Positions 2,192 through 26,504 of a stretch of DNA of 28,110 nt are shown piece by piece. The stretch comes from a virus. Taxonomy: Duplodnaviria > Heunggongvirae > Uroviricota > Caudoviricetes. The position numbers and the translations under genes are program-made. The notes below the pieces were generated by a model. The model searched no databases and was not told where the DNA came from. It saw nothing but the letters and a program-made list of their open reading frames with translations. The stretch lies in the IMG/VR virus record IMGVR_UViG_651053022_000001, one strand, 5' to 3'. The first letter of the stretch is position 1. Each line of letters begins with the position of its first letter.

Positions 2192-2231
2192 AGCGACCTC
2201 CCTTAACGTGGTGCTGCCTATTCTAAGTTGC

Positions 2232-3341: not shown

Positions 3342-3498
3342 CTGCTCCCTCCCTGTGCGGCATGGTCGCATGTGCGTGCGGAGGGGGTTACTGCTTTTTG
3401 TTGTCGCCGTGGCGGGAGAACGGCGCAGGGGTGAGATTACGCGCGTGGTGGGTGATGATTGTTGCCGAATCATTTAACGGATACAAGGGGCTGAAGCT

Positions 3499-4683
3499 AT
3501 GAGTGAAACTCGTTTTCATGGTGCCCGTGTCACGGAAAGTACCGACCTGGTAACAGCGATTAATGATGTTGATTCCAGCGTTATCGGTATCGTGGCAACG
3601 GCGGATGATGCGGATGCGGAGCTGTTCCCGCTGAACAAGCCCACACTGCTGACCCGCGTCAATGACGTGCTGGGAAAATGCGGGACTACGGGGACGCTTT
3701 ATCGTGCGCTTAAGGCTATCGCAGACCAGGTGAGCACAAAAGTGATCGTCGTTCGCGTGGCTGAACACAAAGAAGAAGGCGGTAGGACGCAGGATCAACT
3801 GGTTATCGGTGGTTCTGAATCTGACGGCAGCTATACGGGGATGTATGCGCTGCTTGTTGCAGAGCAGGATGAAAGCATCGGATACCGTCCGCGTATTCTG
3901 GCCGCGCCGGAGCTGGACACGGAGGCGGTGACAAAATCCCTGTGCGTGATTGCGGGTAAACTGCGCGCGTTTGTGTATGCCACATGTCATGGTTGTAACA
4001 CGATGGCTGAGGCGATTACCTACCGCCAGAAATTCAACGAACGTGAGGTGATGCTCTTATGGCCTGACTTCATCGCCTACAACCCGAAAAGTGGCAAAAA
4101 CGAAACGTTCCCCGCGCCTGCTTATGCGTGCGGCCTTCGTGCGTACATTGACCATGAGCAGGGCTGGCACAAATCGCTGTCCAACGTTCCGGTTAAAAAT
4201 GTGCTGGGGATGTCGAGGCATGTGTTCTGGTCGTTACAGGCCGAAGACAGTGATGCCAACAGCCTCAACAACAAAGAAATCACGACCATTATTCGTCGTA
4301 ACGGGTTCCGCTTCTGGGGCAACCGCACACCGGAAACGAACGCCTACATCTTTGAGGTGTATACCCGAACCGCACAGGTGCTGGCTGATTCAATTGCGGA
4401 AGCGCAGTTTGAAACCATCGACAGTCCACTGACGCCTGCGAACGTGAAGGATGTTATCAGTGCCATCAGGGCAAAATTGGATTCGCTGGTTACTGCCGGG
4501 AAACTGATTGGCGCGGAGTGCTGGTATGACGTGGTGGATAACGGCACCACGGATTTACGTCAGGGGCGTGTGCGTATTCGCTACAAATATACGCCCGTTC
4601 CCCCGCTGGAAGACATGGAGCTTTACCAGACGTTTACTGATGAATTCTTTGGTCCCGCATTTGCGGTGCTGGGAGGTGCCTGA
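3499..4683 (+). CDS. FI: contractile tail sheath protein (P2 gpFI-like)
   Basis: 394 aa with tail sheath family features; SD aagggg upstream; stop overlaps the FII start (TGATG). Confidence 0.92.
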   Translation: MSETRFHGARVTESTDLVTAINDVDSSVIGIVATADDADAELFPLNKPTLLTRVNDVLGKCGTTGTLYRALKAIADQVSTKVIVVRVAEHKEEGGRTQDQLVIGGSESDGSYTGMYALLVAEQDESIGYRPRILAAPELDTEAVTKSLCVIAGKLRAFVYATCHGCNTMAEAITYRQKFNEREVMLLWPDFIAYNPKSGKNETFPAPAYACGLRAYIDHEQGWHKSLSNVPVKNVLGMSRHVFWSLQAEDSDANSLNNKEITTIIRRNGFRFWGNRTPETNAYIFEVYTRTAQVLADSIAEAQFETIDSPLTPANVKDVISAIRAKLDSLVTAGKLIGAECWYDVVDNGTTDLRQGRVRIRYKYTPVPPLEDMELYQTFTDEFFGPAFAVLGGA

Positions 4684-5195
4684 TGGCTGTACCAAAACAT
4701 CTTCGCTTTTTTACGTTGTTTGTGGATGGTGAAAACGAAGTGGGTAAAGTGACATCCGTCACGCCGCCCAAACTGACGCGCAAAACCGACAGCTATCGTG
4801 GTGGTGGCATGATGGGAGCAGTAAGTATTGATCTCGGTCTGGACGACTCCGCGCTTGATGCGAGCTTTGTCATGGGGGGAGCTGTTCGTGCACTGTTCCT
4901 TAAGTATGGCGGCACGATTGACGGCACGCTGCTGCGTTTTGCGGGTGAATATTACACCGATGCAGAAAGCGATCTGTATGAAATCGAGATGCGCGGGCGT
5001 GTGACGGAAATTGATATGGGGGAGGCCAAACAGGGCGAAGCCACATCACACACTTACGCTGTCAAAAACACCTACTACAAGCTGAGCGTTAACGATCGCC
5101 CGCTGTGGGAAATCGACCTGTTGAACCACATCTACCGGAAGGACGGCAAGGACATTGTGCCTGACCGCATTCGTTCCGCGCTTGGGCTTGGCTGA
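4683..5195 (+). CDS. FII: tail tube protein (P2 gpFII-like)
   Basis: 170 aa, directly after the sheath gene with a 1-nt overlap. Confidence 0.9.
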   Translation: MAVPKHLRFFTLFVDGENEVGKVTSVTPPKLTRKTDSYRGGGMMGAVSIDLGLDDSALDASFVMGGAVRALFLKYGGTIDGTLLRFAGEYYTDAESDLYEIEMRGRVTEIDMGEAKQGEATSHTYAVKNTYYKLSVNDRPLWEIDLLNHIYRKDGKDIVPDRIRSALGLG

Positions 5196-5250
5196 TAAGT
5201 AATATGCAGGCGGCGCAGTGCGTCGCCTCTGACTGAAAAGGAGACAACTG

Positions 5251-5625
5251 ATGAAAGATATCGATACTGAAACCCGGAATAACACCGTAGCGGATGATGT
5301 GACGTCAGGTGAGGATATGGCTGTCGAACGTGGTGTAAAACTTTCCCGGCCAATTGAGCGTGGTGCCGAAAAAATCACATATGTGGAGATCACCGGGGCT
5401 ATTGAGCAGGCGGGATCCCTGCGTGGTCTGTCGCTGTCTGATGTGCTGAATCTGAAAGCGGATACCATGTTCACGCTGTTGCCTCGCGTGACCTCGCCAC
5501 GACTGGATGAAGTGATGATTAAAAAAATGTCGTCACGCGATTTTATTCAGTTGTGCGCTGTGGCTGTAAATTTTATGAGCGAGCCAGACTCTGGCGCGAA
5601 GAGCGTGCAGGAGACGGCAGCGTAA
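5251..5625 (+). CDS. E: tail assembly chaperone (P2 gpE-like)
   Basis: 124-aa ORF between tube and tape measure; AAGGAG SD upstream. Confidence 0.8.
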   Translation: MKDIDTETRNNTVADDVTSGEDMAVERGVKLSRPIERGAEKITYVEITGAIEQAGSLRGLSLSDVLNLKADTMFTLLPRVTSPRLDEVMIKKMSSRDFIQLCAVAVNFMSEPDSGAKSVQETAA

Positions 5626-5789
5626 TCACCCTGGTGTGCTTTGAGCACATCGAAGATCTGGTGGCGGATATTGCCGCCATTTTCAACTGGTCGCCCGCCG
5701 AAATCTTCATGATGACGCCCGGCGAAGTGGTTAGCTGGCGTGAGCGGGCGGCACTTCGCAGCGGGAATGCAGATAATGAAGACTCTTGA
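5251..5789 (+). CDS. tail assembly chaperone E+E' fusion by programmed -1 ribosomal frameshift (about 179 aa)
   Basis: The -1 frame is open from 5523 to 5789 and overlaps the 3' end of E and the 5' end of T; a canonical heptamer A_AAT_TTT at 5568-5574 is in the correct phase of E. Confidence 0.6.
5568..5574 (+). promoter_or_regulatory. candidate -1 frameshift slippery heptamer AAATTTT (E to E')
   Basis: X_XXY_YYZ pattern with zero-frame codons AAT TTT. The alternative TAAAAAA at 5520-5526 is less canonical. Confidence 0.5.
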
Positions 5790-8583
5790 CATCCGGGTCG
5801 CTTTCAGCGCCGTTGACAGGCTGACCCGGCCTGCCGAAAACGCCCGCCGCCTGATGGGGCAGTTTGGTGACTCCATTCAGCGAACGCAGGGGGCGATCAA
5901 AAATCTCGAGCGTCAGGCGCGTTCATTTGAGCGCGCCCGCGACGCTGTCAGTAAAGCGGATGCGGGTATCGTGAAAGCACGACGCCAGCTTAACGCCCTT
6001 AATCAGTTACAACGCACGGGTACAGTGCTCAGCGAAAAACAACAAAAGCTGATGCAGCAGTTAAGCACCCGGCTTGAACGCCTGAATGAATCGCGCACAC
6101 GGGAAATTCAGAAAATGCGGGAGCTTGGCGGAGAACTGAAACGCCACGGCATTTCCCTGACAGGCAGCGATAACACCATCCAGCAGGCCATCAGACGCAC
6201 CGAACAATACAACAACCAGCTTGAACGCGAACGGCAGGCGCTTGCGCGTGTAACGCAGGCTCGTGAGCGGTATTCGCGCGCGCAGGAAACCGCGGGAAAA
6301 CTGAAAACAGGTGGTGCGCTGGCAATTGGTGCGGCAGCGGCGGGCGGCTATGCTGCCGGGCGTTTTTTGCAGCCCGCGATCGGGTTCGGCAAAGAGATGT
6401 CCCGCGTTCAGGCGCTGACGCGAATCGACAAAAACAGCCCGCAGTTTAAGGCGCTGCGTGAGCAGGCGTTAAAACTTGGCTCTGAAACACAGTTTACTGC
6501 GAGTGATGCCGCCAGTGGGCAGAGCTTTCTGGCAATGGCTGGTTTTACTCCGCAGGCCATTCAGGCCGCATTGCCCGGTGTTCTTAATATGGCGCTGGCA
6601 GGTGGCGTCGAACTCGGCGAGACGGCTGATATAGGCTCCAATATCCTCACACAGTTCAACCTGACAGCCGATCAAATGGACCGGGTTGGCGATACGCTGA
6701 CAGCGGCATTCACCCGGACCAATACTGATTTACGCGCGCTGGGCGAAACCATGAAGTATACCGGTCCGGTTGCCGCAAAACTTGGTATCAGTCTTGAAGA
6801 AGCGGCAGCCATGGCCGGGATGCTTGCCAATAATGGTCTTCGTGGAAGCGATGCTGGTACGGCCATGCGCGCAAGTCTGTCCCGCCTTGCATCACCGCCA
6901 AAAGCTGCGGCTGATGCGCTGAAAGAGCTGGGGGTGTCAGTTGCTGACGCCAGAGGCAAAATGCGCCCGATGGAGGATGTGCTGCTTGATCTCTATAAGG
7001 CGACACAAAAATACGGACAGGTGGACCAGGTTTCCTTCTTCAAGGACATCGCCGGAGAAGAGGCGTTCGTTGGTTTGCAGACGCTTGTTGCGGCGGCTGG
7101 TTCAGGAGAGCTGCAAAAACTGACCAGAGAATTGCAGGGGGCAAGGGGAGAGGCCGATCGCGTTGCAAAAGTAATGGCCGATAATCTTGATGGGGACCTG
7201 AAAAATCTCGACAGCGCATGGGAAGGTCTTCGTATTCGCATCAGTGATCTGGTTGACGGTCCGCTGCGTTCTGTCACGCAGTGGCTCACGCGGGTGCTTG
7301 AAAAAATCACCTCGCTGGCGCAGGCCCATCCGGTACTGACGCGCCAGCTACTGATAGCAGGCGGTGCGTTGCTGGCAATGACTGCAACGGTTGGCTCGTT
7401 GTCGCTGGCTATTGGTGTGCTTGCTGGCCCGCTGGCAAAACTGCGTCTTGGCTTTTCCCTCCTGACCGGTTCAATGAATGCTGTCAGACTCCTGCCAGCA
7501 CTATGGGGAATGGTGACGGGTTCCGTTTCGTTACTGGGGGGCGCTATCGGGGCGTTGTTCAGTCCGGTCGGCCTTATCGTGGCTGCGCTTGCCGGAGCTG
7601 CCGTTCTCATCTGGAAATACTGGGATCCCATCAGGGCATTTTTTGCCGGGGTGTTCAGCGGGATTATGGAAAGGCTGACCCCGTTGCGCGAAACCTTTGA
7701 ACGGTTTGGTCCTGTTTTTGACGCAATCGGGAGTGGGATCAGCCAGGTGTTTAACTGGTTTAAATCGCTGCTGTCTCCGATGGAGTCCAGCAAGGAAACT
7801 CTGGATAAATGTACCAGTGCTGGCGAGATATTCGGTAACGTTCTTGGCGGTGCGTTACAACTTGTTCTGACACCTGCAAAAATGTTGCTGGATACGCTGG
7901 CGTGGATACTTGAAAAGCTTGGTGTGCTTCCGGATGAAGCGGAAAGGGCGCGCAAGAAAATCGAAGACGCACAGCGTGCGGCCATTCTTCAGGACAAGGT
8001 TGCCTTGCTTCAGGGGGACCTGGCGAAAATCAATCCGCCGAAGCCTGTGGAAAATGGCAATGGCACCGGAGGTGATAACCCCAAAGACAATAAACCGCTC
8101 ACAGACAGCAATACCGGTACGCTGCGCAGACTCAGCAAAATTGCTGATAACACAGGTAAGCTGGTTGAGGAGACGAAAAAACGCATTGGCCCCGGCGATA
8201 TTGTCTTTAAAAACCTGCCCCGAGCACTTGCTGTTCGTGGGGAGTGGCAGGAGCGGAAGATTGCGCAGGTCAGTAAGCCTGCCCCCGCAATTAATATCAC
8301 ACCCGTGGTCCCGGCTCCGCTGCCTCCGGCGCTGGTCCCTGTTGTTGCGGCCAGCTCCCGCCCGGTGGCGGAGGCTATACGATCTCCAGTGGCATCAGTT
8401 CCTGTAACTTCCCGTAACCGGGAGCCTGTTGCCTCCGGATTTGGTGGTGAAATTCATGTTCATCTGCATAACGTTGTTACGCAGAATCCCCGCGAACTGG
8501 CGAAACTGGTCGGTGAAATGGTCAGGGCAGAAATGGAACGGCGCGCCCGTGCCGGGCGTGGCAGTTTTTACGATAAAGATTGA
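5776..8583 (+). CDS. T: tail tape measure protein (P2 gpT-like)
   Basis: About 935 aa; coiled-coil N-terminal half, Gly/Ala-rich hydrophobic middle, position after E/E'. Start ambiguous (GTG 5740, ATG 5767 or ATG 5776). Confidence 0.9.
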   Translation: MKTLDIRVAFSAVDRLTRPAENARRLMGQFGDSIQRTQGAIKNLERQARSFERARDAVSKADAGIVKARRQLNALNQLQRTGTVLSEKQQKLMQQLSTRLERLNESRTREIQKMRELGGELKRHGISLTGSDNTIQQAIRRTEQYNNQLERERQALARVTQARERYSRAQETAGKLKTGGALAIGAAAAGGYAAGRFLQPAIGFGKEMSRVQALTRIDKNSPQFKALREQALKLGSETQFTASDAASGQSFLAMAGFTPQAIQAALPGVLNMALAGGVELGETADIGSNILTQFNLTADQMDRVGDTLTAAFTRTNTDLRALGETMKYTGPVAAKLGISLEEAAAMAGMLANNGLRGSDAGTAMRASLSRLASPPKAAADALKELGVSVADARGKMRPMEDVLLDLYKATQKYGQVDQVSFFKDIAGEEAFVGLQTLVAAAGSGELQKLTRELQGARGEADRVAKVMADNLDGDLKNLDSAWEGLRIRISDLVDGPLRSVTQWLTRVLEKITSLAQAHPVLTRQLLIAGGALLAMTATVGSLSLAIGVLAGPLAKLRLGFSLLTGSMNAVRLLPALWGMVTGSVSLLGGAIGALFSPVGLIVAALAGAAVLIWKYWDPIRAFFAGVFSGIMERLTPLRETFERFGPVFDAIGSGISQVFNWFKSLLSPMESSKETLDKCTSAGEIFGNVLGGALQLVLTPAKMLLDTLAWILEKLGVLPDEAERARKKIEDAQRAAILQDKVALLQGDLAKINPPKPVENGNGTGGDNPKDNKPLTDSNTGTLRRLSKIADNTGKLVEETKKRIGPGDIVFKNLPRALAVRGEWQERKIAQVSKPAPAINITPVVPAPLPPALVPVVAASSRPVAEAIRSPVASVPVTSRNREPVASGFGGEIHVHLHNVVTQNPRELAKLVGEMVRAEMERRARAGRGSFYDKD

Positions 8584-8595
8584 GGAGTCATGGCC

Positions 8596-9084
8596 ATGAT
8601 GATGATCTACGGCATGTTTGTTTTTGAGCTGCGCACGCTGCCGCATCAGCAGTTACAGCAAAACAAAAGCTGGCGGCATGTGAAAAATGAACGCGTTAAC
8701 CGTTCAGCAAGCTGGCAGTATATCGGTGCAGGTGATGATCGCATCGTTCTTTCTGGTGTGCTTTATCCTGAAATTACAGGTGGCGAAGTGTCGCTGTCGC
8801 TGCTGACCACGCAGGCGTATACAGGACGACCCTGGCCTTTGATTGATGGCGTCGGGCAGATTTACGGCATGTATGTCCTGACTGAAACGAATACGACCCG
8901 CTCCGAGTTTGATCGCTACGGTAAGGCGAAAAAGATAGAATTTTCACTGACTCTTGAACGCTGTGATGAGGATTTGCGGGAGCGCCTGCAATCCTCATCG
9001 TTCAGTGATATGCTGTCCGGCTTCAAAGATAAGGTGACATCATCTCTTAACAGCGCGGCCAGTTCAGTTAAAGGGCTGTTCTGA
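8596..9084 (+). CDS. U: tail protein (P2 gpU-like)
   Basis: MMMIYGMFVFELRTLPHQ... matches the gpU family; GAGGAG SD 8 nt upstream of ATG 8596 (alternative ATG 8590). Confidence 0.88.
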   Translation: MMMIYGMFVFELRTLPHQQLQQNKSWRHVKNERVNRSASWQYIGAGDDRIVLSGVLYPEITGGEVSLSLLTTQAYTGRPWPLIDGVGQIYGMYVLTETNTTRSEFDRYGKAKKIEFSLTLERCDEDLRERLQSSSFSDMLSGFKDKVTSSLNSAASSVKGLF

Positions 9085-9092
9085 TTTAACAC

Positions 9093-9129
9093 AAAAACCG
9101 CTAATGGTCAGATTAGCGGTTTTCATTTT
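9093..9129. terminator. bidirectional hairpin between U and the invertase remnant
   Basis: Stem ccgctaat / attagcgg flanked by an A-run and a T-run. Confidence 0.5.
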
Positions 9130-9670
9130 CCTGAGTCTGCCCGGTTGTTTCTTCAGTCTGTATATCGCCTACAGGGTGATAACGATAAATCGTCGATGTG
9201 CCAATGCCGTAAATTATTGCCAGTTGTTTTCTGTCGTGCCCGTTTTTGATTAGCCTTGCTATTTGCTCATGCTGTTCTTTTGTCAGCTTCGGTCGACGTC
9301 CGCCTGTGCGCCCCCTTGCGCGCGCTGCCGCCAGCCCGGCCAGTGTACGTTCAACAATTAATTCACGTTCCATTTCAGCCAGGGCACCCATCACGTGGAA
9401 GAAAAAACGCCCCATTGGAGAAGATGTGTCTATGCTGTCGGTCAGACTGCGAAAATTAATCCCTCGCTCCCGTAGTTCCCCGACGAGAGAAATCAGATGT
9501 TTCATGCTTCGCCCGAGGCGATCCAGTTTCCAGACAACCAGCGTGTCACCTTTTTGAAGGCGCTTTAAAGCGCGTTTTAATCCCGGTCGGTCTGTCTTTG
9601 TCCCGCTTAATTTATCTTCAAATATTTGTTCACATCCTGCACAAACAAGAGCGTTTCGTTGCAGGTCTTT
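9113..9670 (-). pseudogene. Gin/Pin/Cin/Hin-family serine DNA invertase, 5'-truncated
   Basis: Hand translation upstream of the track ORF gives KDLQRNALVCAGCEQIFEDKLSGTKTDRPGLKRALKRLQKGDTLVVWKLDRLGRSMKHLISLVGELRERGINFRSLTDSIDTSSPMGRFFFHVMGALAEMERELIVERTLAGLAAARARGR..., near-identical to Gin as I recall it from the equivalent of residue 16 onward. An in-frame TAA at 9671-9673 removes the first ~15 residues including the catalytic serine. Confidence 0.85.
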
Positions 9671-10013
9671 TTATCATTTTTTCATCATAAATACCTTCAC
9701 GAATACTTACAGCAACTCGCTCGTAAAAATTTAAAATATATTGAAATTTTCGACGCTCGGCCATTTCTTCATCTGTTATTATGCAACCATCACAAGGAAA
9801 AACATAAGAACGAAATGATTTGCCTGAACGATGCACTTGTTTCAGGGTATGCAATGACTCTATATATTGCATATCTTGCCGACTCTCAAAAAGAAAGTTG
9901 GCCGTTTGAGTTTTTTTTGCGGTACGCACATTGTAGATAATGGTTCCAATGGCAACCAAAACGCCAAGCAGAACAATAGCATTGCTGATGATTTGTAGTG
10001 TTATTGGGTTCAT
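9630..10013 (-). CDS. hypothetical membrane-anchored protein (N-terminal TM helix), 127 aa
   Basis: ORF in AT-rich DNA with a 24-residue hydrophobic segment (ITLQIISNAIVLLGVLVAIGTIIY) then a charged soluble region; last ~13 codons are read from invertase-derived DNA in another frame, so the C-terminus is probably not native. No family recognised. Confidence 0.5.
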   Translation of the reverse strand: MNPITLQIISNAIVLLGVLVAIGTIIYNVRTAKKTQTANFLFESRQDMQYIESLHTLKQVHRSGKSFRSYVFPCDGCIITDEEMAERRKFQYILNFYERVAVSIREGIYDEKMIKRPATKRSCLCRM

Positions 10014-10027
10014 CCTATTTCATCCAT

Positions 10028-10058
10028 AAAAAAGGCGGGGAGCAAATCCCCGCCTCAT
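10028..10058 (-). terminator. intrinsic terminator or attenuator hairpin immediately upstream of the 127-aa ORF
   Basis: Stem ggcgggga / tccccgcc, loop of ~5 nt; on the minus strand followed by tttttt, then the ATG of the 127-aa ORF 9 nt later. Confidence 0.5.
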
Positions 10059-10074
10059 TAGAGGTCAACGTAGC

Positions 10075-10110
10075 TTAGAAACCATCAAATTCATCATACA
10101 TTTTTTTCAT
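10075..10110 (-). CDS. 11-codon upstream ORF (MKKMYDEFDGF), candidate leader peptide
   Basis: ATG preceded by GAGGGGG SD at 5-nt spacing; stop 17 nt before the hairpin. Too short to be certain. Confidence 0.25.
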   Translation of the reverse strand: MKKMYDEFDGF

Positions 10111-10162
10111 ATCAACCCCCTCATAGAAATCATAACCACGTTTTGTGGTTTTTGTGACGTAT

Positions 10163-10191
10163 AAACTACATCAAAGGCAAGCCACGGTCAA
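10163..10191 (-). promoter_or_regulatory. candidate sigma70 promoter for the minus-strand cargo transcript
   Basis: Minus-strand TTGACC (-35), 17-bp spacer, TAGTTT (-10), about 50 nt upstream of the small ORF. Confidence 0.3.
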
Positions 10192-10210
10192 ATATATAGG
10201 CATGCTTACC

Positions 10211-10240
10211 TGCACAAAAGTGCACAAATTTGCACAATTT
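10211..10240. repeat. three phased direct repeats TGCACAA at exact 10-bp spacing
   Basis: tgcacaaaag / tgcacaaatt / tgcacaattt; a fourth TGCACAA at 10303-10309; inverted TTTTGTG copies at about 10141-10160. Confidence 0.7.
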
Positions 10241-10608
10241 TTTTGAACGACTTTTTACCCTTCCGGCCCGCATGGCGGCTGGATCCGTCAAGGATCCGTG
10301 CGTGCACAAAAAAACGCGCTTTTTCTGCGCGCAGGTGACGGGGGAACAGCCCGCGTTTCAGGGGGTAAATAGCATTCCCTGAACGATGTCGCAGAGACAC
10401 AACAGAATGGCCATATTTCTCACGCTGAGCATGAAAAAGGCGTGAGGGCTTTTGATTTGATGGGGTGAAAGGTAAGGCCGTCAAAATCGCACTGAGGCAG
10501 CGAGAACATGCAGTCAACGCGGTGGAATTGCGTAAGAGTCTGACCGTCGATGGTGGCGATAAACTGGAAGGCGTCGTGAAATTATCTGATTGATACAGGA
10601 GCTGGAGA

Positions 10609-10637
10609 GCCGGGGCATAAATTTTTTATGCCCCGGC
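10609..10637. repeat. perfect 29-bp palindrome (13-bp arms, 3-nt centre)
   Basis: gccggggcataaa ttt tttatgccccggc, about 100 bp upstream of the 174-aa ORF. Confidence 0.7.
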
Positions 10638-10736
10638 GAAGCAGCAGACAAGCGAAGCGCGTCAGCGATACGGCACCTTGCCGACCATACTTCATAAGTG
10701 CAAAATACGAGCAAAGAAATCAATGGAGGCTGTCTT

Positions 10737-11261
10737 ATGGTCATTAATTACAAGCAGTTAAGAGAAAAACGGGAGCAGGTAAAGGAGAGCTTTCGCCGCA
10801 ATGAAGATCTGACCCCGCTTGTACGCCTTGCCCAGGGCATTGTTGATGCTTATGAAATCTCGCTGGAGCTGCCATCACAGACCTGGACAGATAGCGACGG
10901 TAATCGCCAGCATTACGTTTCATGCGGACTGGAAGCAGCCGAAGGATTTCGCAGAATGCCTTTATCCCAGATCCCTGCCGCTACCCCCAAAGCACGGGGC
11001 AGCAATGATGAGCGAAAACTGACTTTTAGTATTGAAACGGTGGTTGACGACACACCTGGCGAAGTCGCGTTCGTGCACACTCCTGTTTCGATCGCAATGT
11101 ATAACGATGAAATACAGGTTCGCGTTAATAATAATATCGTGCCACTTAAAGAAGGTAATTCACCCTACACCACCGTTTGTGAAGCCATTCAATATTACGT
11201 TCTCTCTGAAATTGATAATCTCAAGCCTGACGGCACCCAGAAAATGGTTCAACTCTGGTAA
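10737..11261 (+). CDS. hypothetical soluble protein, 174 aa (cargo gene next to portal gene Q)
   Basis: ORF with GGAGG SD 7-8 nt upstream of ATG 10737 (track ORF starts at an upstream alternative start, 10698); acidic, no TM segment; no family recognised. Confidence 0.6.
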   Translation: MVINYKQLREKREQVKESFRRNEDLTPLVRLAQGIVDAYEISLELPSQTWTDSDGNRQHYVSCGLEAAEGFRRMPLSQIPAATPKARGSNDERKLTFSIETVVDDTPGEVAFVHTPVSIAMYNDEIQVRVNNNIVPLKEGNSPYTTVCEAIQYYVLSEIDNLKPDGTQKMVQLW

Positions 11262-11292
11262 AAAGGACAGCCCCATCACGGGGCTGTTTTTT
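11261..11292. terminator. bidirectional terminator shared by the 174-aa ORF and portal gene Q
   Basis: Stem cagcccc / ggggctg with A-run before and tttttt after; the Q stop codon lies in the loop. Confidence 0.6.
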
Positions 11293-12322
11293 CATCAAGA
11301 AGAGCATAAGAGTTAAAACGGATCACCTCTTCGCCAAGCCAGTCATTGATGTGCTTCATAGCCTCCATAACGGGCATCAGCTCGTTAATTGCGTAAACCC
11401 GCGCTGCCTTCTCCACATCGCCAAACGCACTTTTTTCGCCCGGCATCGCCCCCATCAGTTGCGGCGGAACGCGGTGCGCAGCCAGCACATCATCACGGGA
11501 TGCCGCCTTAACATTCATGAATTCATCTTTTGCGGTGATCTGCTGGAACGGCAAAATTTGCACCCCCTCTTTGCCCCCGTTGGGCGCATGAATGAGCACG
11601 TTTTTAAACGCACCACCACCACGTGCCCCCTGTAGCGTTTCTTTCAGGGAGTCCATGCTTTCGCGGTTTACCTGCGCTGCACCGATGTAGATGATGCACC
11701 CGGCGTGGGATCCGTTGTCGTAGTACAGTTTTCTGAACATGTCCGCCGAATGAGAAAGGCTGGCCGAGAGTAATGCGCCAAGATATTCCGGCATGCCGTA
11801 GATTTCCTGGTTAATATCCGGATTCATCAGGTGGCACACTTTGCCAGGACGAAACTGAAACGCGTCCTTGCCATCCTGCACATACCACCATGATTCAAGA
11901 TCGCTTCCGCGTCGCATGTATTTCGCCAGGGCGTGCCGTAATTTAAGCGGTTCGCCGAGCATATTGCTTCGAAGCTCAAGGAATGCGTTACCGAACACAA
12001 ACCAGTCCAGCGCCAGCGCCGAGAAATCCTGCCGGGAAAGCAGCGGGTGCGGGATGTAGCAACCGAGTAATACATTGCGCTTAAAGTAAAGCGCAGACTG
12101 ATGCCAGGACGTTTGCCGGGCTGCTCTTGCCAGACCGTACCAGTCCACCGGGGTTTCATACCACCGCCCGTTATCAGCACAGTACATATTGTCCAGCAGG
12201 TCATGCCCGGTCAGGCGATAAGGACCATCAAATGTGAATGCACTGAGCGATGATTCTTTCCTGAGCGCATCAGCGAGATCAATGCGTGAACTCATGCGCA
12301 CTTTTTTATTTTTTCTGCTCAT
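11276..12322 (-). CDS. Q: portal protein (P2 gpQ-like)
   Basis: About 345 aa, matching the P2 portal family in size and sequence; adjacent to and co-oriented with terminase P. Confidence 0.9.
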   Translation of the reverse strand: MSRKNKKVRMSSRIDLADALRKESSLSAFTFDGPYRLTGHDLLDNMYCADNGRWYETPVDWYGLARAARQTSWHQSALYFKRNVLLGCYIPHPLLSRQDFSALALDWFVFGNAFLELRSNMLGEPLKLRHALAKYMRRGSDLESWWYVQDGKDAFQFRPGKVCHLMNPDINQEIYGMPEYLGALLSASLSHSADMFRKLYYDNGSHAGCIIYIGAAQVNRESMDSLKETLQGARGGGAFKNVLIHAPNGGKEGVQILPFQQITAKDEFMNVKAASRDDVLAAHRVPPQLMGAMPGEKSAFGDVEKAARVYAINELMPVMEAMKHINDWLGEEVIRFNSYALLDEKTAP

Positions 12323-14073
12323 CAGAACTCCATAACCATGAAACGCTCGTTTTCTCCTTCGCCGCCAATTGGTTCGTTAATGACAGCAAGCATGGTTGCC
12401 CACGCAAGGTCGCCGTGGCTGATCCCCCTCGCGCGGTCCGTTTCGTAAGTGATAAAGCCGCCCGGTGTTTTCACCTTACGCACGGCGTTAAAGGCCGCGA
12501 CCAGCTCGCGTTCGGCGCGATCGTATTCCCACCGCCCGGCACGCATTATTTGCAGCATTTTCAGTACCAGCGACCGTTTTGATGACAGCGTGAAGGTGTA
12601 CGGAATAGCAGCAGGGAAAAACCGCTTCACTATCTGATAAACAGCCTCCCCGTTCCCGCCCGTCACATCAATGCCGATGTGTTCCACGTTGTAGCGACAC
12701 GTGAACTCTTCAATGACTCTGGCCTGTTCTTCAAACTCCAGCCCCTGAACGCGTCGCGTCTCCACCGTTCGAAAACGGCCGCCAGGAACAGCCGGAGGAA
12801 CCACCACGGACACAGCGCCGCTGTCGCCGTTGCCACTACTGCCGTTTGCGTCATACCCAATCCATACCGGACGATTCCCCATCGGGCGGGGAGCAAAAGG
12901 TTTCCAGTCTTTCCAGTCGTCGTATCCGTCAACACCGCAGCCAATCAGGATATTCAGGTTAAATGCCGATTCCCCTTCGCGGACAAACTCACACATATAG
13001 AGATTGAGGAACTCGTCTTCGGTGTTTTCATCACGAATTTCGTCGATATCGGTGTGTTTCCAGCCGTGATTAACCACATCTTCCAGCGTGACAATTTGCC
13101 GCCACGTCCGGTCAGGGCAGATAAGCCCATTATGCAGCGTTTTCCAGTCCACAGAAAAACGCTGGCGTTTATGCGAGGCCTTTTTCTCGTTCCAGCGGTC
13201 GCCGTTCCAGTAGGCGTATGCCTCGTGCGTTTCGGTGGATGGCGTGGAGAAGTAGGTGCGCCGCAGTCCGCTGAGGGTTGCCATAGCGCCAGCCACCTTG
13301 CGCAGTTCAGCAAAGCGACTGACCCAGAAAAATTCATCAAAATAAAAATTGCCCGTATAGGACTGTGCCGACGCAGCAGAAGTGCCGAGAAAATGCAGCT
13401 CTGCGCCGTTGGAGAGGATGATTTTATCGCCCCCTTTCAGCTCCACATCAACTTCAGCCGCGGCCTTCTGAATAATGCTTTTAAACTGGAACGCCTGACG
13501 ACGCGACGCAGACAAAAAAATCTGGTTACGCTGGTAAGGTTGCGCCACATCGTCACGCAGCGCCATCAGCAGTGCTTCCTGTGCAAAATACCAGGTCGCC
13601 CCAATCTGTCGGGATTTCAGGATCATCCTGTTACGTATCCCGGCTTCCCTGCAAAGGGTCAGGGAGTCAAACCAGCCCCGCTGATGCCACTCCAGCCTGC
13701 TGATGATTTTTTCCCGCAGTGCGGCAATCTGTTCCGGCGTGAAATGATTTTTGAGTTTTTTCGCCCGGCCTTTCTTTCCTGCGGCCATCACATCCGGCTG
13801 GCCATCATGCAGCTTTTTAAGCTGCCGGGTCAGCAGGTCTATTTCCTTAAAGTCACCGCCTGTTTTATTCTGTTTTTCAGTAAGCTGGATGAGGCGCGCA
13901 TCGATGGACTGCGTGACACGCTGCACGGGTGGCGTTTCATCCCACTGGTCACGTTTTTTCCACGCATAAATCGTGTTCGGGTTTATTCCCATCAGACGTG
14001 ATATTTCTGCGGGCGGATAACCCTGCCAGTAAAGTTGCCGCGCACGCTGGCGCACAAAAGCGTCCTGAATCAT
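12322..14073 (-). CDS. P: terminase large (ATPase) subunit (P2 gpP-like)
   Basis: 583 aa; size, position and sequence consistent with P2 gpP; divergent from O. Confidence 0.92.
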   Translation of the reverse strand: MIQDAFVRQRARQLYWQGYPPAEISRLMGINPNTIYAWKKRDQWDETPPVQRVTQSIDARLIQLTEKQNKTGGDFKEIDLLTRQLKKLHDGQPDVMAAGKKGRAKKLKNHFTPEQIAALREKIISRLEWHQRGWFDSLTLCREAGIRNRMILKSRQIGATWYFAQEALLMALRDDVAQPYQRNQIFLSASRRQAFQFKSIIQKAAAEVDVELKGGDKIILSNGAELHFLGTSAASAQSYTGNFYFDEFFWVSRFAELRKVAGAMATLSGLRRTYFSTPSTETHEAYAYWNGDRWNEKKASHKRQRFSVDWKTLHNGLICPDRTWRQIVTLEDVVNHGWKHTDIDEIRDENTEDEFLNLYMCEFVREGESAFNLNILIGCGVDGYDDWKDWKPFAPRPMGNRPVWIGYDANGSSGNGDSGAVSVVVPPAVPGGRFRTVETRRVQGLEFEEQARVIEEFTCRYNVEHIGIDVTGGNGEAVYQIVKRFFPAAIPYTFTLSSKRSLVLKMLQIMRAGRWEYDRAERELVAAFNAVRKVKTPGGFITYETDRARGISHGDLAWATMLAVINEPIGGEGENERFMVMEF

Positions 14074-14227
14074 TGCTCCCCCTGAGTAATTACAGGAAGA
14101 TTACCCGCGCGCGAAACTGTTCTCCTTAACCCTCTGTTCTGACTGTTTTCTTACAACAAAAGCCCTTTGTATCAGCCTGTTACGCTTTGCCATCATGACT
14201 GAAGAACCAGTCAGAGGGGCAAAAACT

Positions 14228-15064
14228 ATGGCTAATGAAAAAAAGACATCCCGCAAAAAGTTTCGCGTGGCTGTCTCCGGATCAACTGTTGATGGCCGTG
14301 AAATCAGTCCGGTGCATCTGCGTGAAGCCGCCGAGAACTTCAACCCGGATGTTTACGCTGCCCGCGTGAACGTTGAGCACTATCTCTCGCCATGTCCGTC
14401 AAGCGAATTTTCCGCAATGGGCGATGTCACCGCACTGAGTACGGAAGACATTACGGAAGGTCCGCTGGCCGGACGTACTGCGCTGTATGCAGAAATCGAA
14501 CCGACCGAGCGCATGAAGCAGCTTGTCGCTGACGGCAAGAAAATCTATTCCAGTATCGAACTGCACCCGCAGTTCTCCGTTAACGGGCGCGCCTATCTGG
14601 TCGGGCTGGCGATGACCGACACCCCGGCAAGCCTGGGCACTGAGCGCCTGAAATTCACGGCACAGCAACGTCAGGCGGTGATGACGTTCAACAGTATCCA
14701 GGGTGAAGCACCGCTTATCTCCGAAGCCATCGAGTCTGAAATCATCGAAATGGCAGAACAACGCCAGGAAGAAGGCACCCAGTGGTTTAACCGCGTAATG
14801 GGGATTATTGGTCGTGGCCGCAAAGCGGATGACGCCAGTTTCTCCCGAATTCAGGAAGCGGTGGAAGGCGTTGCAACGTCACAGGCCGACATTATCGACC
14901 GTTTTAATGTGCTGGAAACCCGCCATCAGCAGGACCGCCAGAAAATCACGTCACTGACCACAGAGCTGACAGCATTGAAGGAAAAACTGCGCACGCAGGA
15001 CGGCGATCCGCAGAACCGCTTCACCGCAACGGGCGCAGCCTCCGACCAGCTGGCTGACTTCTGA
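14228..15064 (+). CDS. O: capsid scaffolding protein (P2 gpO-like)
   Basis: MANEKKTSRKKFRVAVSGSTVDGREISPVHL... resembles the gpO N-terminus; start at ATG 14228 with SD; track ORF starts at 14195. Confidence 0.88.
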   Translation: MANEKKTSRKKFRVAVSGSTVDGREISPVHLREAAENFNPDVYAARVNVEHYLSPCPSSEFSAMGDVTALSTEDITEGPLAGRTALYAEIEPTERMKQLVADGKKIYSSIELHPQFSVNGRAYLVGLAMTDTPASLGTERLKFTAQQRQAVMTFNSIQGEAPLISEAIESEIIEMAEQRQEEGTQWFNRVMGIIGRGRKADDASFSRIQEAVEGVATSQADIIDRFNVLETRHQQDRQKITSLTTELTALKEKLRTQDGDPQNRFTATGAASDQLADF

Positions 15065-15087
15065 TAAGACAAAGGAGCAAATTTTTT

Positions 15088-16140
15088 ATGAATCTGGTGA
15101 TGTCAGATATTACCCGCAACAAGCTGGGTTGCTATATGGCGCAGCAGGCGTCGCTTAACAATATCCCGGTATCTGCACTGGTATCGCGATTTACCGTGGA
15201 ACCCGCGGTGCAGCAGCGTTTTGAAAACGCCTCAAAGGAAAGTACCGAATTTACGAAAAGAATTAACGTGATCGGCGTGACCGACCAGAAAGGCGAAAAA
15301 ATCCTCCTGGACACCACCGGGCCAATTGCGCGCACGAATAGCAGTTATGACGGCATCAAACGCCGTAACCCGAATAACGTGATCGATATGAAGTCTCGTC
15401 AGTACCAGTGCGAACAGGTGAACTACGATACCTTTATTTCGTACCCACAGCTTGATACCTGGGCGGCCCACAGCGATTTTCAGTCCCGTATCAGTACACA
15501 GATCGCCCGGCAGGTAGCGCTTGATCGCATCATGATTGGCTTTAACGGCACATCCCACGCCTACGAGTCTGATTTTCACACCAACAAGCTGCTTCAGGAC
15601 GTTAACGTGGGCTGGCTGGAGCACATCAGAACCGATGCCAGCGAGCGCGTAATGAATGACGTGACGCTGACCTCCCGCAACATGGACAACACTGTGGCGC
15701 ACGCGGGTAAGTATGCGAATGCCGATGCTCTGGTACAGGATGCGCGCTCATCCCTGCTGGATGAATGGCACAAGGAAGCTGACGACCTCGCGGTGATTAT
15801 GGGGCGCAACCTGTTTAACTCGCTGCGTCTGCCCGTGCTGAACAGCATCAGCGGCCAGAATCCCAATGCGGAATTACTTGCCGGGCAGCTCATCCTGTCA
15901 TCGCGCACCATTGGCGGGCTGGGCGTGTTCCTTGCGCCGTTCTTCCCGGATGCAACGATGCTTATCACCTCGTTCAACAACCTGTCGATTTACTGGCAGA
16001 AAGGTTCAATGCGTCGCCTGATGAAAGACGAGCCGGAATACAACCGCATCGCCACCTACCAGTCCATCAATGACGCTTATGTCGTTGAAGACTATGGCAA
16101 GTGCGCGATGGTCACTGGCCTGAAGTTCGCCGACAGCTAA
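15088..16140 (+). CDS. N: major capsid protein (P2 gpN-like)
   Basis: 350 aa with several blocks matching gpN as I recall it (FTVEP, GEKI, PFFPDATMLIT, VVEDY); AAGGAG SD. Confidence 0.93.
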   Translation: MNLVMSDITRNKLGCYMAQQASLNNIPVSALVSRFTVEPAVQQRFENASKESTEFTKRINVIGVTDQKGEKILLDTTGPIARTNSSYDGIKRRNPNNVIDMKSRQYQCEQVNYDTFISYPQLDTWAAHSDFQSRISTQIARQVALDRIMIGFNGTSHAYESDFHTNKLLQDVNVGWLEHIRTDASERVMNDVTLTSRNMDNTVAHAGKYANADALVQDARSSLLDEWHKEADDLAVIMGRNLFNSLRLPVLNSISGQNPNAELLAGQLILSSRTIGGLGVFLAPFFPDATMLITSFNNLSIYWQKGSMRRLMKDEPEYNRIATYQSINDAYVVEDYGKCAMVTGLKFADS

Positions 16141-16185
16141 TCAACTCACGGCGGGCATCATGCCCGCCTGTAACGGAGAGAAAAA

Positions 16186-17782: not shown

Positions 17783-17784
17783 CA

Positions 17785-19031: not shown

Positions 19032-21799
19032 CCAGTAAGAACTTTGCACTGATTACAGCCATGACACAGGCTGAACTGACTCAAAAGGTGAATGAACATC
19101 TTGCGAAAGGGTGGCATCTTCAGGGGGAGACGCGGGTTGCCTACGAACCCGGCACCCCGTGGTATCTAATGCAGGCAATGGTGGCCGATGGCACTACAGA
19201 CATCTCACCTGATTCCCCCCAGCACGGCAGCGTGCCGGAGTGGTATTACGTGGTGGTACTTGCTGGTCAATCCAATGCCATGTCATATGGTGAGGGAATG
19301 CCGCTGCCGGATTCTTACGATGCGCCCCACCCACGCATTAAGCAACTGGCCCGTCGCAACACAGTGACTCCCGGTGGTAAAGCATGCGCATTTAACGACA
19401 TCATTCCGGCAGACCACTGCCTGCATGATGTTCAGGATATGAGCGCACTGAATCACCCGAATGCAGACCTGAGCAAAGGGCAGTATGGCTGTGTCGGACA
19501 GGGCTTGCATATTGCCAAACGCCTGTTGCCTTACATTCCACAGAATGCCGGGATTTTACTGGTTCCATGCTGTCGTGGTGGTTCGGCATTCACCCAGGGC
19601 GCGGAGGGGACATTCAGCGAGTCCACAGGAGCCAGTCAGGATTCGGCTCGCTGGGGTGTGGGTAAACCTTTATATCAGGACCTGATTTTGCGCACGAAGG
19701 CCGCATTGCAGAAAAACCCAAAAAACATGCTGCTGGCCGTATGCTGGATGCAGGGCGAATTTGACATGAGCGCCGCTACGTACTCACAGCAACCTCCGCT
19801 GTTTACGGCCATGCTGAAACAGTTTCGTGCGGACATTACCGAGTTTAACACGCAGTGTCATGGAGGCAGAGCGGCAAGTGTGCCATGGATTTGTGGTGAC
19901 ACGACGTATTACTGGAAAAACACCTACGGCACGCAGTACGACACCATTTACGGGGCGTACAAAAACAGGGAGAGCGACAACGTTTTCTTTGTGCCGTTCC
20001 TGACCGATGGTAGTGGCAACAATACCTCCACCAACGCACCAACGGAAGATCCGGATGCTGCAAGTGAGGGAACCCTGATGCAGGCGATTGCAGCAGAAGG
20101 TGATGTGGTCGTCAGTGGTGCAACTGAGCCGGAGTGGTACTACGTCATCGTACTGGCCGGGCAATCCAATGCCATGGCTTACGGTGAAGGGCTTCCGCTT
20201 CCGGATTCATACGATGCGCCCCATCCGCGCATTAAGCAACTGGCCCGTCGTAACACAGTGACTCCCGGTGGTGAAGTATGCGTATTTAACGACATCATTC
20301 CTGCTGACCATTGTCTGCATGATGTTCAGGATATGAGTACGATTAACCATCCCCGGGCTGACCTGAGCAAAGGGCAGTACGGCTGTGTCGGACAGGGCTT
20401 ACATATTGCCAAAAAACTGCTTCCGTATATCCCTAATAATGCGGGGATCCTGCTGGTACCATGCTGTCGTGGTGGTTCGGCATTCACCCAGGGCACGGAG
20501 GGGACATTCAGCGAGTCCACGGGGGCCAGTCAGGATTCGGCTCGCTGGGGAGTGGGTAAGCCGTTATATCAGGATCTGCTTTTCCGCACGAAGGCAGCAT
20601 TGCAGAAAAACCCGAAAAACGTTTTGCTGGCGATATGCTGGATGCAGGGGGAATTCGATATGACGAATGCCAGTTACGCCCAGCAGCCAGCAGCATTTCT
20701 TGCAATGGTACAGCAGTTCCGTGCTGACCTTGCCGGGCTGGCGGCGCAGTGTCACGGTGGAAGTCCGGCATCAGTCCCCTGGATTTGTGGCGACACGACA
20801 TACGCGTGGAAACAAGAACACGGTACGCAATATGAAGTGGTATATGGTGCATATAAAGGTAAAGAATCCCAGCAGATTTATTTTGTTCCCTTTATGACCG
20901 ATGGTAGCGGAGTTAATACACCGACAAACAACCCGTCAGAAGATCCTGATATTGCCGGGTCTGGTTATTACGGTTCGGCATCCCGAACGAACAAAAACTG
21001 GGTATCATCAAATCGCCAGACGCATTTCAGCTCATGGGCGCGTCGTGGCATTATTCCCGATCGTATGGCAACCGCTATTCTGAACGTAGCCGGTCGCACC
21101 TTAGCCTTCATCAGTGGTAAGGCACCGGAAATCAAACCCTCGCCCGGCGGCGACACGCCATCGGGGCCGTCTGAAGATGCATCCGTACGCACAATCTCCC
21201 TGTTGCCGACAGCCGGAGATGCTGCTGCGCAGGGCTGGAGCATTAAGAATGGCGGAATTCAGTTGTCAGATGGTGTATTTAAGATCACCAAGCAGAGCAA
21301 TAAAGCCTGGTCCCTGACGCGCCCGGTGGATGACGCAGTCTCCCTGCTGACACGGGGTGGCAGACTGAGCTGTAAGTTTCGACTGTCAGGCGCACTGACC
21401 AACAATCAGTTCGGTCTGGGAATTTATCTGTATACCGATGTAGCGTTACCTGACGTCGTGGCGATGACCGGGACTGGTAACCCGTTCCTGATGTCGTTCT
21501 TCACCCAGACCACAGACGGCAAACTGAATCTGATGCATCACAAGAAAGCAGGAAACACAAAGTTGGGCGAGTTCGGGAATTACAGTAACGACTGGCAGAC
21601 GCTGGAGCTGGTGTTCACCGCCGGCAGTGCCACGGTTACTCCGAAACTGAATGGAGTGGCTGGCCCGGCATTCCAGGTCATAAAAGACAGTCTGACACTG
21701 GGGCTGAATGCGCTGACGTTAACTGATATCACTAAAAATGCCGCGTACGGCGTCGATATCGGCAGCCTGGTGCTGGAAATCAATAATCCCGCAGCATAA
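19028..21799 (+). CDS. NanS-p-like prophage O-acetylesterase: DUF1737-type N-terminus, two tandem SGNH/sialate O-acetylesterase domains, C-terminal putative carbohydrate-binding domain
   Basis: 923 aa; the GQSNAMxYGEG esterase block occurs twice (about residues 70-345 and 365-640) with highly similar sequence. Confidence 0.8.
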   Translation: MTSKNFALITAMTQAELTQKVNEHLAKGWHLQGETRVAYEPGTPWYLMQAMVADGTTDISPDSPQHGSVPEWYYVVVLAGQSNAMSYGEGMPLPDSYDAPHPRIKQLARRNTVTPGGKACAFNDIIPADHCLHDVQDMSALNHPNADLSKGQYGCVGQGLHIAKRLLPYIPQNAGILLVPCCRGGSAFTQGAEGTFSESTGASQDSARWGVGKPLYQDLILRTKAALQKNPKNMLLAVCWMQGEFDMSAATYSQQPPLFTAMLKQFRADITEFNTQCHGGRAASVPWICGDTTYYWKNTYGTQYDTIYGAYKNRESDNVFFVPFLTDGSGNNTSTNAPTEDPDAASEGTLMQAIAAEGDVVVSGATEPEWYYVIVLAGQSNAMAYGEGLPLPDSYDAPHPRIKQLARRNTVTPGGEVCVFNDIIPADHCLHDVQDMSTINHPRADLSKGQYGCVGQGLHIAKKLLPYIPNNAGILLVPCCRGGSAFTQGTEGTFSESTGASQDSARWGVGKPLYQDLLFRTKAALQKNPKNVLLAICWMQGEFDMTNASYAQQPAAFLAMVQQFRADLAGLAAQCHGGSPASVPWICGDTTYAWKQEHGTQYEVVYGAYKGKESQQIYFVPFMTDGSGVNTPTNNPSEDPDIAGSGYYGSASRTNKNWVSSNRQTHFSSWARRGIIPDRMATAILNVAGRTLAFISGKAPEIKPSPGGDTPSGPSEDASVRTISLLPTAGDAAAQGWSIKNGGIQLSDGVFKITKQSNKAWSLTRPVDDAVSLLTRGGRLSCKFRLSGALTNNQFGLGIYLYTDVALPDVVAMTGTGNPFLMSFFTQTTDGKLNLMHHKKAGNTKLGEFGNYSNDWQTLELVFTAGSATVTPKLNGVAGPAFQVIKDSLTLGLNALTLTDITKNAAYGVDIGSLVLEINNPAA
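19233..20965 (+). repeat. in-frame tandem duplication (two units of ~840 bp, period 894 bp) inside the esterase gene
   Basis: Long stretches read almost identically at 19233-20070 and 20127-20965 (for example gagtggta..gcattcacccagggc..gaggggacattcagcgagtccac); by eye roughly 85-90 percent identity. Confidence 0.85.
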
Positions 21800-25268: not shown

Positions 25269-26504
25269 ATGAGTACCACAACACGTAAATTTAAAACCGT
25301 TATCACCGATACGGGTGCCAAAAAATTAGCTCAGGCAGCCGCGCCAGATGGTAAGCCTGTCCGCCTGACTCATATGGCCGTGGGCGACGGTGGCGGCACG
25401 TTGCCCACACCAGACAGTAAGCAGACCCGTCTGGTGCATGAGGTGTGGCGACATACTGTTAATCGCGTCATCCTGGACGCAACACATCAGAACCGCATTA
25501 TTGCGGAGCTGGTTATTCCTCCTGAAACGGGCGGATTCTGGATCCGGGAAATTGGTGTATTTGATGAGCACGGCGATTTAATCGCGGTGGGCAATACTGC
25601 CGAAAGTTACAAGCCAGCCGTTGCCGAAGGGTCCGGTCGTGCACAAACATTTCGCACCATTCTGACCGTATCCAGCACTGCCACCGTGGTGCTTACCGTG
25701 GATAACACCATGGTGATGGCCACAGTGGATTACGTGGATGACAAACTGAAAGAGCATGAACAGTCACGACGTCACCCGGACGCCTCGCTGACCGCAAAAG
25801 GCTTTGTTCAACTCAGTAGCGCCACTAACAGCGTGTCTGAAACGCAGGCTGCAACGCCGAAAGCAGTAAAGGCCGCGTATGACCTTGCTAACGGTAAATA
25901 TACTGCGCAGGATGCCAGCACGACGCGAAAAGGCCTTGTCCAGCTCAGTAGCGCCACCAACAGCGTGTCTGAAACGCAGGCTGCAACGCCGAAAGCAGTA
26001 AAGGCCGCGTATGACCTTGCTAACGCAAAATATACCGCTCAGGACGCCACGACGGCACAAAAAGGGATAGTCCAGCTCAGTAGTGCCACCAACAGCACGT
26101 CTGAAACACTGGCCGCGACATCGAAAGCTGTTAAGGCGGTAATGGATGAAACGAACAAGAAAGCGCCCTTAAATAGTCCTGCACTGACCGGAACGCCAAC
26201 AACACCAACTGCGCGACAGGGAACGAATAATACCCAAATCGCAAGCACGGCTTTCGTTATGGCTGCGATTGCCGCCCTTGTAGATTCGTCACCTGATGCA
26301 CTGAACACGCTGAACGAGCTGGCTGCGGCGCTGGGCAACGACCCGAATTTTGCGACCACCATGACTAACGCGCTTGCGGGTAAGCAACCGAAAGATGCCA
26401 CCCTGACGGCGCTGGCCGGACTTACTACTGCGGCAGGCAAGTTTCCGTATTTTACGGGGAATGATGTCGCCAGCCTGGCAACCCTGACAAAAGTCATTTA
26501 CTAA
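25269..26504 (+). CDS. H: tail fibre protein H, N-terminal (constant) portion only; probably C-terminally truncated
   Basis: 411 aa versus about 669 aa for P2 H; contains three 44-aa tail-fibre repeats; stop codon is immediately followed by AT-rich non-phage DNA and gnd. Confidence 0.85.
   Translation: MSTTTRKFKTVITDTGAKKLAQAAAPDGKPVRLTHMAVGDGGGTLPTPDSKQTRLVHEVWRHTVNRVILDATHQNRIIAELVIPPETGGFWIREIGVFDEHGDLIAVGNTAESYKPAVAEGSGRAQTFRTILTVSSTATVVLTVDNTMVMATVDYVDDKLKEHEQSRRHPDASLTAKGFVQLSSATNSVSETQAATPKAVKAAYDLANGKYTAQDASTTRKGLVQLSSATNSVSETQAATPKAVKAAYDLANAKYTAQDATTAQKGIVQLSSATNSTSETLAATSKAVKAVMDETNKKAPLNSPALTGTPTTPTARQGTNNTQIASTAFVMAAIAALVDSSPDALNTLNELAAALGNDPNFATTMTNALAGKQPKDATLTALAGLTTAAGKFPYFTGNDVASLATLTKVIY
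25797..26192 (+). repeat. three tandem 132-bp (44-codon) repeats inside H
   Basis: Repeated unit encoding G-x-VQLSSATNS-x-SET-x-AAT-x-KAVKA..., with near-identical DNA at 25800, 25932 and 26064. Confidence 0.75.

Follow-up and report, generated by a model that had tools for sequence, protein, structure and literature searches.

A 3'-truncated DUF4760 cargo gene at a private junction in a P2-like prophage of Escherichia coli ST131

The chimeric reading frame and its surroundings

The window, which is the whole 28,110-nucleotide stretch of DNA that was analysed, represents a P2-like prophage adjoining serS of E. coli O25b:H4-ST131, named Phi1 in strain EC958 (Forde et al., 2014; PMC4134206). 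The region around the reading frame under study, a chimera of two unrelated genes, is composed of the following features.

9113..9665, minus strand: remnant of a serine DNA-invertase gene (Resolvase and HTH_7), beginning at Asp16
9630..10013, minus strand: chimeric 127-aa ORF with an ATG start, made of DUF4760 codons 1-116, 11 out-of-frame codons derived from the invertase gene and TGA
9666..9668: junction J1, a 3-bp microhomology TCT (codon Arg116) common to both parental sequences
9669..10013, minus strand: codons 1-115 of the DUF4760 gene (its native 5' portion), with 100% identity to ST131 WP_001068329
10014..10697: non-coding region 5' of the ORF, identical to the intact locus
10032-10056, minus strand: terminator-like hairpin inside this non-coding region
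10129-10158, minus strand: promoter-like site inside the same non-coding region
10698..11261, plus strand: conserved hypothetical gene WP_000236495 (phrog_5091), which accompanies the cassette beside the portal gene
11276..12322, minus strand: portal gene Q, marking the Q side of the P2 gpA-gpQ hotspot

The first-pass annotation, made from the DNA letters and their translated reading frames, had described a 127-aa ORF at 9630..10013, and this frame, on the minus strand with an ATG start, is present exactly as given. Its proposed single N-terminal TM helix and low-GC setting were borne out as well. Residues 8-26 (IISNAIVLLGVLVAIGTII) form the Kyte-Doolittle maximum of the protein (2.57, 19-residue windows) and the basic stretch RTAKK directly follows the helix, while GC content is 0.35-0.41 across 9450-10199 compared to 0.51-0.60 in the flanking phage genes. 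Against the Pfam family DUF4760 (PF15956) the ORF scored 67.7 bits (E = 1.6e-18) at a cut-off of 25, demonstrating that it is not a chance reading frame. The match covers positions 2-101 of the 141 profile positions, whereas the intact protein is matched from 2 to 141 (117.8 bits); the domain in the window is therefore incomplete and lacks the conserved C-terminal helices.

Alignment revealed that the ORF is identical to WP_001068329 over residues 1-116, after which it continues with PATKRSCLCRM and a stop codon. These residues are invertase DNA read in a shifted frame. The earlier claim that the ORF crosses a recombination junction into an out-of-frame invertase remnant was thus correct, with the join at 9666-9668, and so was the origin of the terminal codons; their number, estimated at about 13, had to be revised to 11, or 12 if the shared Arg codon is counted. 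The native part at 9669..10013 accounts for the TM helix (residues 8-27) and for the helices that are predicted as far as residue ~110. In an exact-protein look-up the chimeric 127-aa protein was not on record.

Upstream of the ORF, 1 kb is unchanged with respect to the intact locus and the start signals are kept. In this region a GC-rich minus-strand hairpin with a T-run (GAGGCGGGGATTTGCTCCCCGCCTT TTTT) ends 18 nt 5' of the ATG, and a 5-codon mini-ORF (ATGGATGAAATAGGATGA), seen by eye, has a stop codon that overlaps the ATG (10014-10056). The hairpin at 10032-10056 may terminate the P-Q late operon, serve as a leader element, or do both.

The intact DUF4760 gene, its cassette and its family

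The intact counterpart is a 165-aa 'DUF4760 domain-containing protein' (WP_001068329) annotated in ST131 chromosomes, and positions 9666-10700 of the window show 100% identity to many ST131 chromosomes that carry the intact gene. Strain 4/1-1 of ST131 carries, in this order, portal gene Q, a 174-aa hypothetical gene, DUF4760, a gene for a 280-aa protein, a ParR-like gene, ParM and replication gene A. DUF4760 is the first gene of a two-gene cassette, the second encoding the 280-aa protein with four TM helices (WP_000193205). It was described that the gpA-gpQ interval is a cos-proximal cargo hotspot at which P2 itself carries old/tin (Rousset et al., 2022; PMC9122126). Table S5B of the same study contains 'system 3, DUF4760' with 1102 occurrences, in which protein 1 has one TM helix (Phobius) and protein 2 has four; the sequence of protein 1 is identical to the intact protein.

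In the window, the Q side of this hotspot is intact (Q at 11276-12322, with identical spacer DNA) and the gpA side is not in the window. The DUF4760 remnant abuts invertase DNA where the gpA side would stand. The gene of the 4-TM partner WP_000193205 gave no match anywhere in the window, and a search of the window for a P2/P4-type cos site found none. An intact DUF4760 cassette is also held by the database entry ON470623.1 ('Escherichia phage vB_EcoM-705R2'), together with ~11 kb of chromosomal genes (ycaO-focA-pflB...dmsABC) beside the integrase; this entry is a prophage-plus-flank sequence and not a packaged phage genome.

The first-pass annotation had suspected that the native C-terminus was replaced, had proposed a search for intact homologues, and had named a frame not conserved among them as evidence against its reading. 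The search recovered the native continuation lost from the ORF (TSYTTVVETYDIAEPLIKAIRESINSDTTYQEFEWLVRRWKANPLRKNK, 49 aa), which is conserved across Enterobacterales, and the homologues keep a frame of 165-175 aa, confirming the replacement. In total 111 clusters of 150-190 aa were obtained across Enterobacterales with near-complete coverage. Among 21-36 homologues from many genera, P131, I133, R137, E138, Q147, E148, E150, L152, W156 and P160, all located in the lost tail, show no or almost no variation. When 1.84 billion representatives were searched with the profile, 2,675 DUF4760 clusters reached E<=0.001; most of the best 150 of these 2,675 matches extend over almost all of the profile, and those that are shorter match one end only.

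In the AF2 model of the intact protein (pLDDT 93), helices span residues 3-46, 48-63, 81-105, 111-139 and 147-158. The first of these corresponds to the TM segment and its extension, and the C-terminal domain is all-helical.

The homologues of Xenorhabdus, Pectobacterium, Kosakonia, Rahnella and Providencia stand without the 4-TM partner. In Xenorhabdus and Pectobacterium the homologue is a solo gene of P2-like prophages, at the same hotspot position, in Lelliottia it adjoins the integrase of a P2/186-like prophage, and in Providencia it is a moron of a siphovirus-type prophage. The homologues of Kosakonia and Rahnella are single-gene insertions between housekeeping operons. These solo occurrences and varied contexts indicate that DUF4760 is mobile, self-sufficient cargo for which the 4-TM partner is optional.

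Junctions of the window and the origin of the truncated frame

Positions 1-9668 of the window are collinear with strain 4/1-1 and 100% identical to it up to codon 16 of the invertase gene. Positions 9666-20071 are the reverse complement of a 4/1-1 stretch that lies 18.8 kb off and starts inside the DUF4760 gene, and the two parental alignments overlap by 3 bp only (TCT). The intact invertase begins with VLIGYVRVSTNDQNTDLQ; the remnant begins at D16 and lacks residues 1-15, including Ser9 of VLIGYVRVST, the catalytic serine (position 9 or 10 in serine recombinases). Further downstream, two additional joins are present.

20071..20072: junction J3, blunt, out of register and in frame, between the Phi1 DUF6645/esterase gene and a nanS-like SASA esterase gene
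26495..26496: junction J2, blunt, between tail-fibre gene H and the 3' end of the last O25b glycosyltransferase gene

At J2, gene H (25269-26504) breaks off after ...ATLTKV, 38 bp short of its 26-bp crossover site, and is followed by the last 112 bp of the final O25b O-antigen gene and then by gnd (26704-28110). The two partner loci are ~1.3 Mb apart in ST131 strain 4/1-1. The partner at J3 is a SASA family carbohydrate esterase gene of a lambdoid prophage at ompW, ~0.5 Mb off in 4/1-1, and the join creates a 923-aa ORF (19028-21799) whose N-terminal part comes from the Phi1 DUF6645/esterase gene. The lambdoid stretch is 98.9% identical to 4/1-1 overall, with 3 mismatches in its first ~1040 bp, and the return to Phi1 takes place within a stretch of ~600 bp that is identical in both esterase paralogues. 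The reference DNA missing between J1 and J2 amounts to exactly the 2.8-kb invertible tail-fibre segment plus flanks of 99 and 38 bp.

All three joins are private to the window. In 5,426 complete E. coli genomes, megablast detected no place that spans both sides of J1 (1.7-kb and 200-bp queries) or that spans J2. The exact 31-mer of J1 had no match in genome, viral and metagenome collections, that of J2 was absent from genome and metagenome collections, and the chimeric proteins of J2 and J3 were not on record in exact-protein look-ups. IS sequences were not present at any of the window junctions. An IS-mediated origin was considered and rejected, as the IS421 of some ST131 strains lies upstream of the intact gene and not at the breakpoint.

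The breakpoints were compared to the crossover sites of the invertase system. The true 26-bp sites (TTATTTAAAACCTCGGTTTACGAGAA and its partner inside tail-fibre gene H) are identical to the Phi1 sites reported by Forde et al. (2014; PMC4134206). J1 is 99 bp away from the first true site, on its outer side, and J2 is 38 bp from the other. The four parental breakpoints of J1 and J2 were scored as crossover half-sites in each surrounding register, and all were at background level: the J1 breakpoints reached 9-10/24, where the background had a mean of 9.4 (95th percentile 12) and the true site scored 19/24. No site-like sequence with at least 17/26 matches exists anywhere in the window, and a crossover inside a 26-bp site with its 2-bp core on both partners was not found. 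Since the breakpoints score as background and the true sites are 99 and 38 bp off, an invertase-mediated origin of J1 was rejected and the join was in all likelihood not made by the invertase.

Taken together, the 127-aa ORF is very probably a 3'-truncated copy of a prophage cargo gene, whose product would be a by-product without function or, at the very most, a membrane peptide that does not last long. Most likely it is an ordinary pseudogene-type remnant, dead rather than a new gene. The intact gene belongs to the gpA-gpQ cassette of Phi1, and its 165-aa DUF4760 product has a single TM helix and a C-terminal domain made up of helices throughout. In the window, codon 116 is linked to the body of the tail-fibre DNA-invertase gene, on the same strand and in another frame, by a non-homologous join that has 3 bp of microhomology. 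Because the frames differ at J1, translation adds 11 unrelated residues and then stops. The join removes the last 49 conserved residues, comprising most of helix 111-139 and all of helix 147-158, and likewise the gene of the 4-TM partner and the first 15 invertase codons including the catalytic serine. As the upstream region is untouched, the chimeric ORF may still be transcribed and translated. The truncated product is not expected to fold like the native protein and, without two helices of the model, would misfold and be non-functional or short-lived. On the other hand, the upstream region is intact so that a product could be made, and a TM helix with ~90 cytoplasmic residues could in principle keep some membrane activity. 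Two inversions, one nested in the other, can account for J1 and J2; judged from the record coordinates, the larger (0.96-2.26 Mb) would lie more or less symmetrically around the terminus. Descriptions already exist of the family, its locus, the prophage and the invertase system, and only the break is private to the window.

The strongest rival to a rearrangement in the cell is an assembly or scaffolding chimera at J1, in which case the ORF would be absent from the organism altogether and both the DUF4760 and the invertase gene would be intact, as in other ST131 strains. We give this a substantial probability, though one somewhat below even. Three non-homologous joins within 17 kb, for which thousands of ST131 genomes show no intermediate, agree about as well with a chimera as with a recent complex rearrangement. 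The first-pass annotation had already offered a junction artefact as one option, and with J1 being private and two private blunt joins nearby this option is at least as likely as was thought. Within 17 kb, J1, J3 and J2 join DNA that is 98.9-100% identical to 4/1-1 loci lying 18.8 kb, ~0.5 Mb and ~1.3 Mb apart. Two of the three joins (J2 and J3) are completely blunt, and neither the three joins nor the three chimeric proteins occurred in any collection searched. The DNA missing between J1 and J2 is, apart from the 99 and 38 bp, the very segment that was shown by Forde et al. (2014; PMC4134206) to flip in ~50% of reads and to generate spurious contigs, with a warning that assemblies can be corrupted by it, and the return after J3 through ~600 bp of identical sequence is a classic repeat-mediated path switch. 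However, blunt joins in unique sequence are not normally made by graph assemblers, and the partner breakpoints (DUF4760 codon 116 and the 3' end of the glycosyltransferase gene) are not known repeats, with IS421 near the gene in some strains but not at the breakpoint. J1 has a microhomology of 3 bp, J3 is in frame, the two nested inversions account for J1 and J2, and the window runs as one continuous sequence from the serS ATG to the gnd stop codon.

We regard it as very unlikely that the shortened product still works at the membrane as an exclusion protein or toxin, with the TM helix and the first helices being sufficient and the C-terminus regulatory. In favour of this, the start region and 1 kb of promoter-proximal DNA have not changed, the protein retains its TM helix together with residues 28-116, and small TM proteins are often effectors in phage defence (Rousset et al., 2022; PMC9122126). 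Nevertheless, the lost segment belongs to the best-conserved parts of a family in which near full-length proteins predominate among the best 150 profile matches and the shorter ones match one end, the operon partner is gone, and the fusion is unique to the window with no sign of selection. Least probable of all, and very improbable indeed, is a site-specific inversion by the Phi1 invertase at secondary ('quasi') crossover sites: although this enzyme is highly active (Forde et al., 2014; PMC4134206), inversions of this kind are known for P1 Cin (Iida & Hiestand-Nauer, as cited in PMC4134206), and J1, with its breakpoint in the invertase gene, and J2 lie close to true sites, the J1 parental breakpoints are unlike the 26-bp site (best half-site 10/24), no true site takes part in the join, the window has no sequence with at least 17/26 site matches, and the event destroys the catalytic N-terminus.

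The copy of the Phi1 inversion system in the window can be compared with that of EC958, which has a Gin/Cin/Pin-type invertase (PMC4134206). The remnant is a part of this gene and the sites of 4/1-1 are its sites, whereas the window copy is without the catalytic serine, both crossover sites and the invertible segment.

Other parts of the prophage are rearranged as well. In the region 1931-9084, the tail block FI-FII-E-T-U (3499-9084, plus strand) is inverted relative to D (2232-3473, minus strand) and ogr (1931-2191, minus strand). The same inversion is present in ST131 strain 4/1-1, the only reference genome that was examined for it, which indicates that Phi1 was scrambled before the events in the window. 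The PGAP annotation of D in 4/1-1 is a 266-aa fragment. At the prophage edge, between serS and ogr, a gene of the Hok/Gef toxin family is located at 1599-1739, as annotated in the identical ST131 reference.

The truncated ORF itself matters little: it came about through a private rearrangement, or through faulty assembly, of a well-known ST131 prophage that was already scrambled. Given the three private non-homologous joins, other ORFs of the window that appear as fusions or as novel, namely the 923-aa esterase and the 411-aa tail-fibre stub, call for similar caution.

Function of the intact family

The small membrane-anchored exclusion and abortive-infection proteins of phages include T4 Imm, P22 SieA, lambda RexB and P4 Gop. 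DUF4760 resembles them in being short, TM-anchored, prophage-encoded and situated in an accessory locus, a comparison of architecture alone. From its genomic context, the intact DUF4760 protein is probably a lysogen-expressed inner-membrane protein whose helical domain would face the cytoplasm in a predicted N-out/C-in orientation, a placement based on the positive-inside rule. The first-pass annotation had brought up prophage exclusion or abortive infection. Its view of the gene as prophage cargo holds, the gene lying at the old-tin locus of P2; the proposed exclusion role did not gain support, as there is no significant PADLOC match and the protein belongs to PHROG 2284, a group annotated as of unknown function. 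From the genomic context, we consider the chances about even that intact DUF4760 acts as a phage exclusion or abortive infection protein, in E. coli optionally coupled to the 4-TM partner.

In PADLOC, the 127-aa ORF had no match and the intact protein reached E = 0.014 only (PDC-S35), and no NCBIfam model matched the DUF4760 protein; homology to a described anti-phage defence protein was therefore not detected by either. Low-stringency Pfam searches of longer DUF4760 members revealed no informative fused domains. The DUF4760 sequence does not appear in the accessible part of Table S2 of evaluated systems (Rousset et al., 2022; PMC9122126) or in the accessible supplements of Vassallo 2022. A record of a functional test of the intact gene was not found in the literature searched, where the one paper that names DUF4760 is unrelated, and the available supplements of a later P2/P4 paper contained nothing on it.

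Regarding its closest described relative, 'system 3' of Rousset et al. (PF15956, PHROG 2284), the window ORF shares residues 1-116, the DNA of the Q side and the neighbouring hypothetical gene, but it lacks the last 49 residues and the 4-TM partner, and invertase DNA replaces the gpA side. P2 old/tin and the validated cargo (DUF4238, HP+HP+HP, DprA+PRTase and TIR+TM of phage AC1) occupy the same cos-proximal locus and are likewise low-GC, moron-like cargo, but DUF4760 has no sequence relationship to them and no significant PADLOC match.

Foldseek searches with the model of the intact protein returned chains of the EDS1 family first, with TM scores of 0.52-0.58 (query-normalised) and non-significant E-values. 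The matched part of these chains, which have 520-626 residues, is presumably the EP domain of EDS1/PAD4/SAG101 (PF18117). Only 7-10% of the residues are identical, and the TM helix forms part of the alignment. Similarity at the sequence or profile level was not found: the DUF4760 profile had no match among PDB sequences at E<=10, and hhalign of DUF4760 against a 28-sequence EP alignment gave a probability of 0.2%. This alignment was made of database entries carrying PF18117, gathered with an EDS1 query. The truncated ORF of the window is without two of the helices of the intact model. The likeness to plant EDS1-family proteins may thus serve as a weak, fold-only lead. It is a long shot that DUF4760 is a bacterial and phage counterpart of the EDS1/PAD4/SAG101 EP domain, which might act as a membrane-tethered helical sensor of a small-molecule, nucleotide-derived immune signal or of a phage product, alone or via the 4-TM partner, with the window copy as an inactivated allele. 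If true, this would account for DUF4760 ranking third by frequency among the cargo of the P2 defence hotspot.

An experiment on the intact gene would be worthwhile, as it is among the most frequent cargo of this hotspot and also occurs alone, both in the P2-like prophages of a number of genera and at a few sites in chromosomes. The 280-aa 4-TM partner has a weak PADLOC match (E = 1.1e-5, 23.9 bits) to Csx27, a membrane protein tied to type VI-B CRISPR systems.
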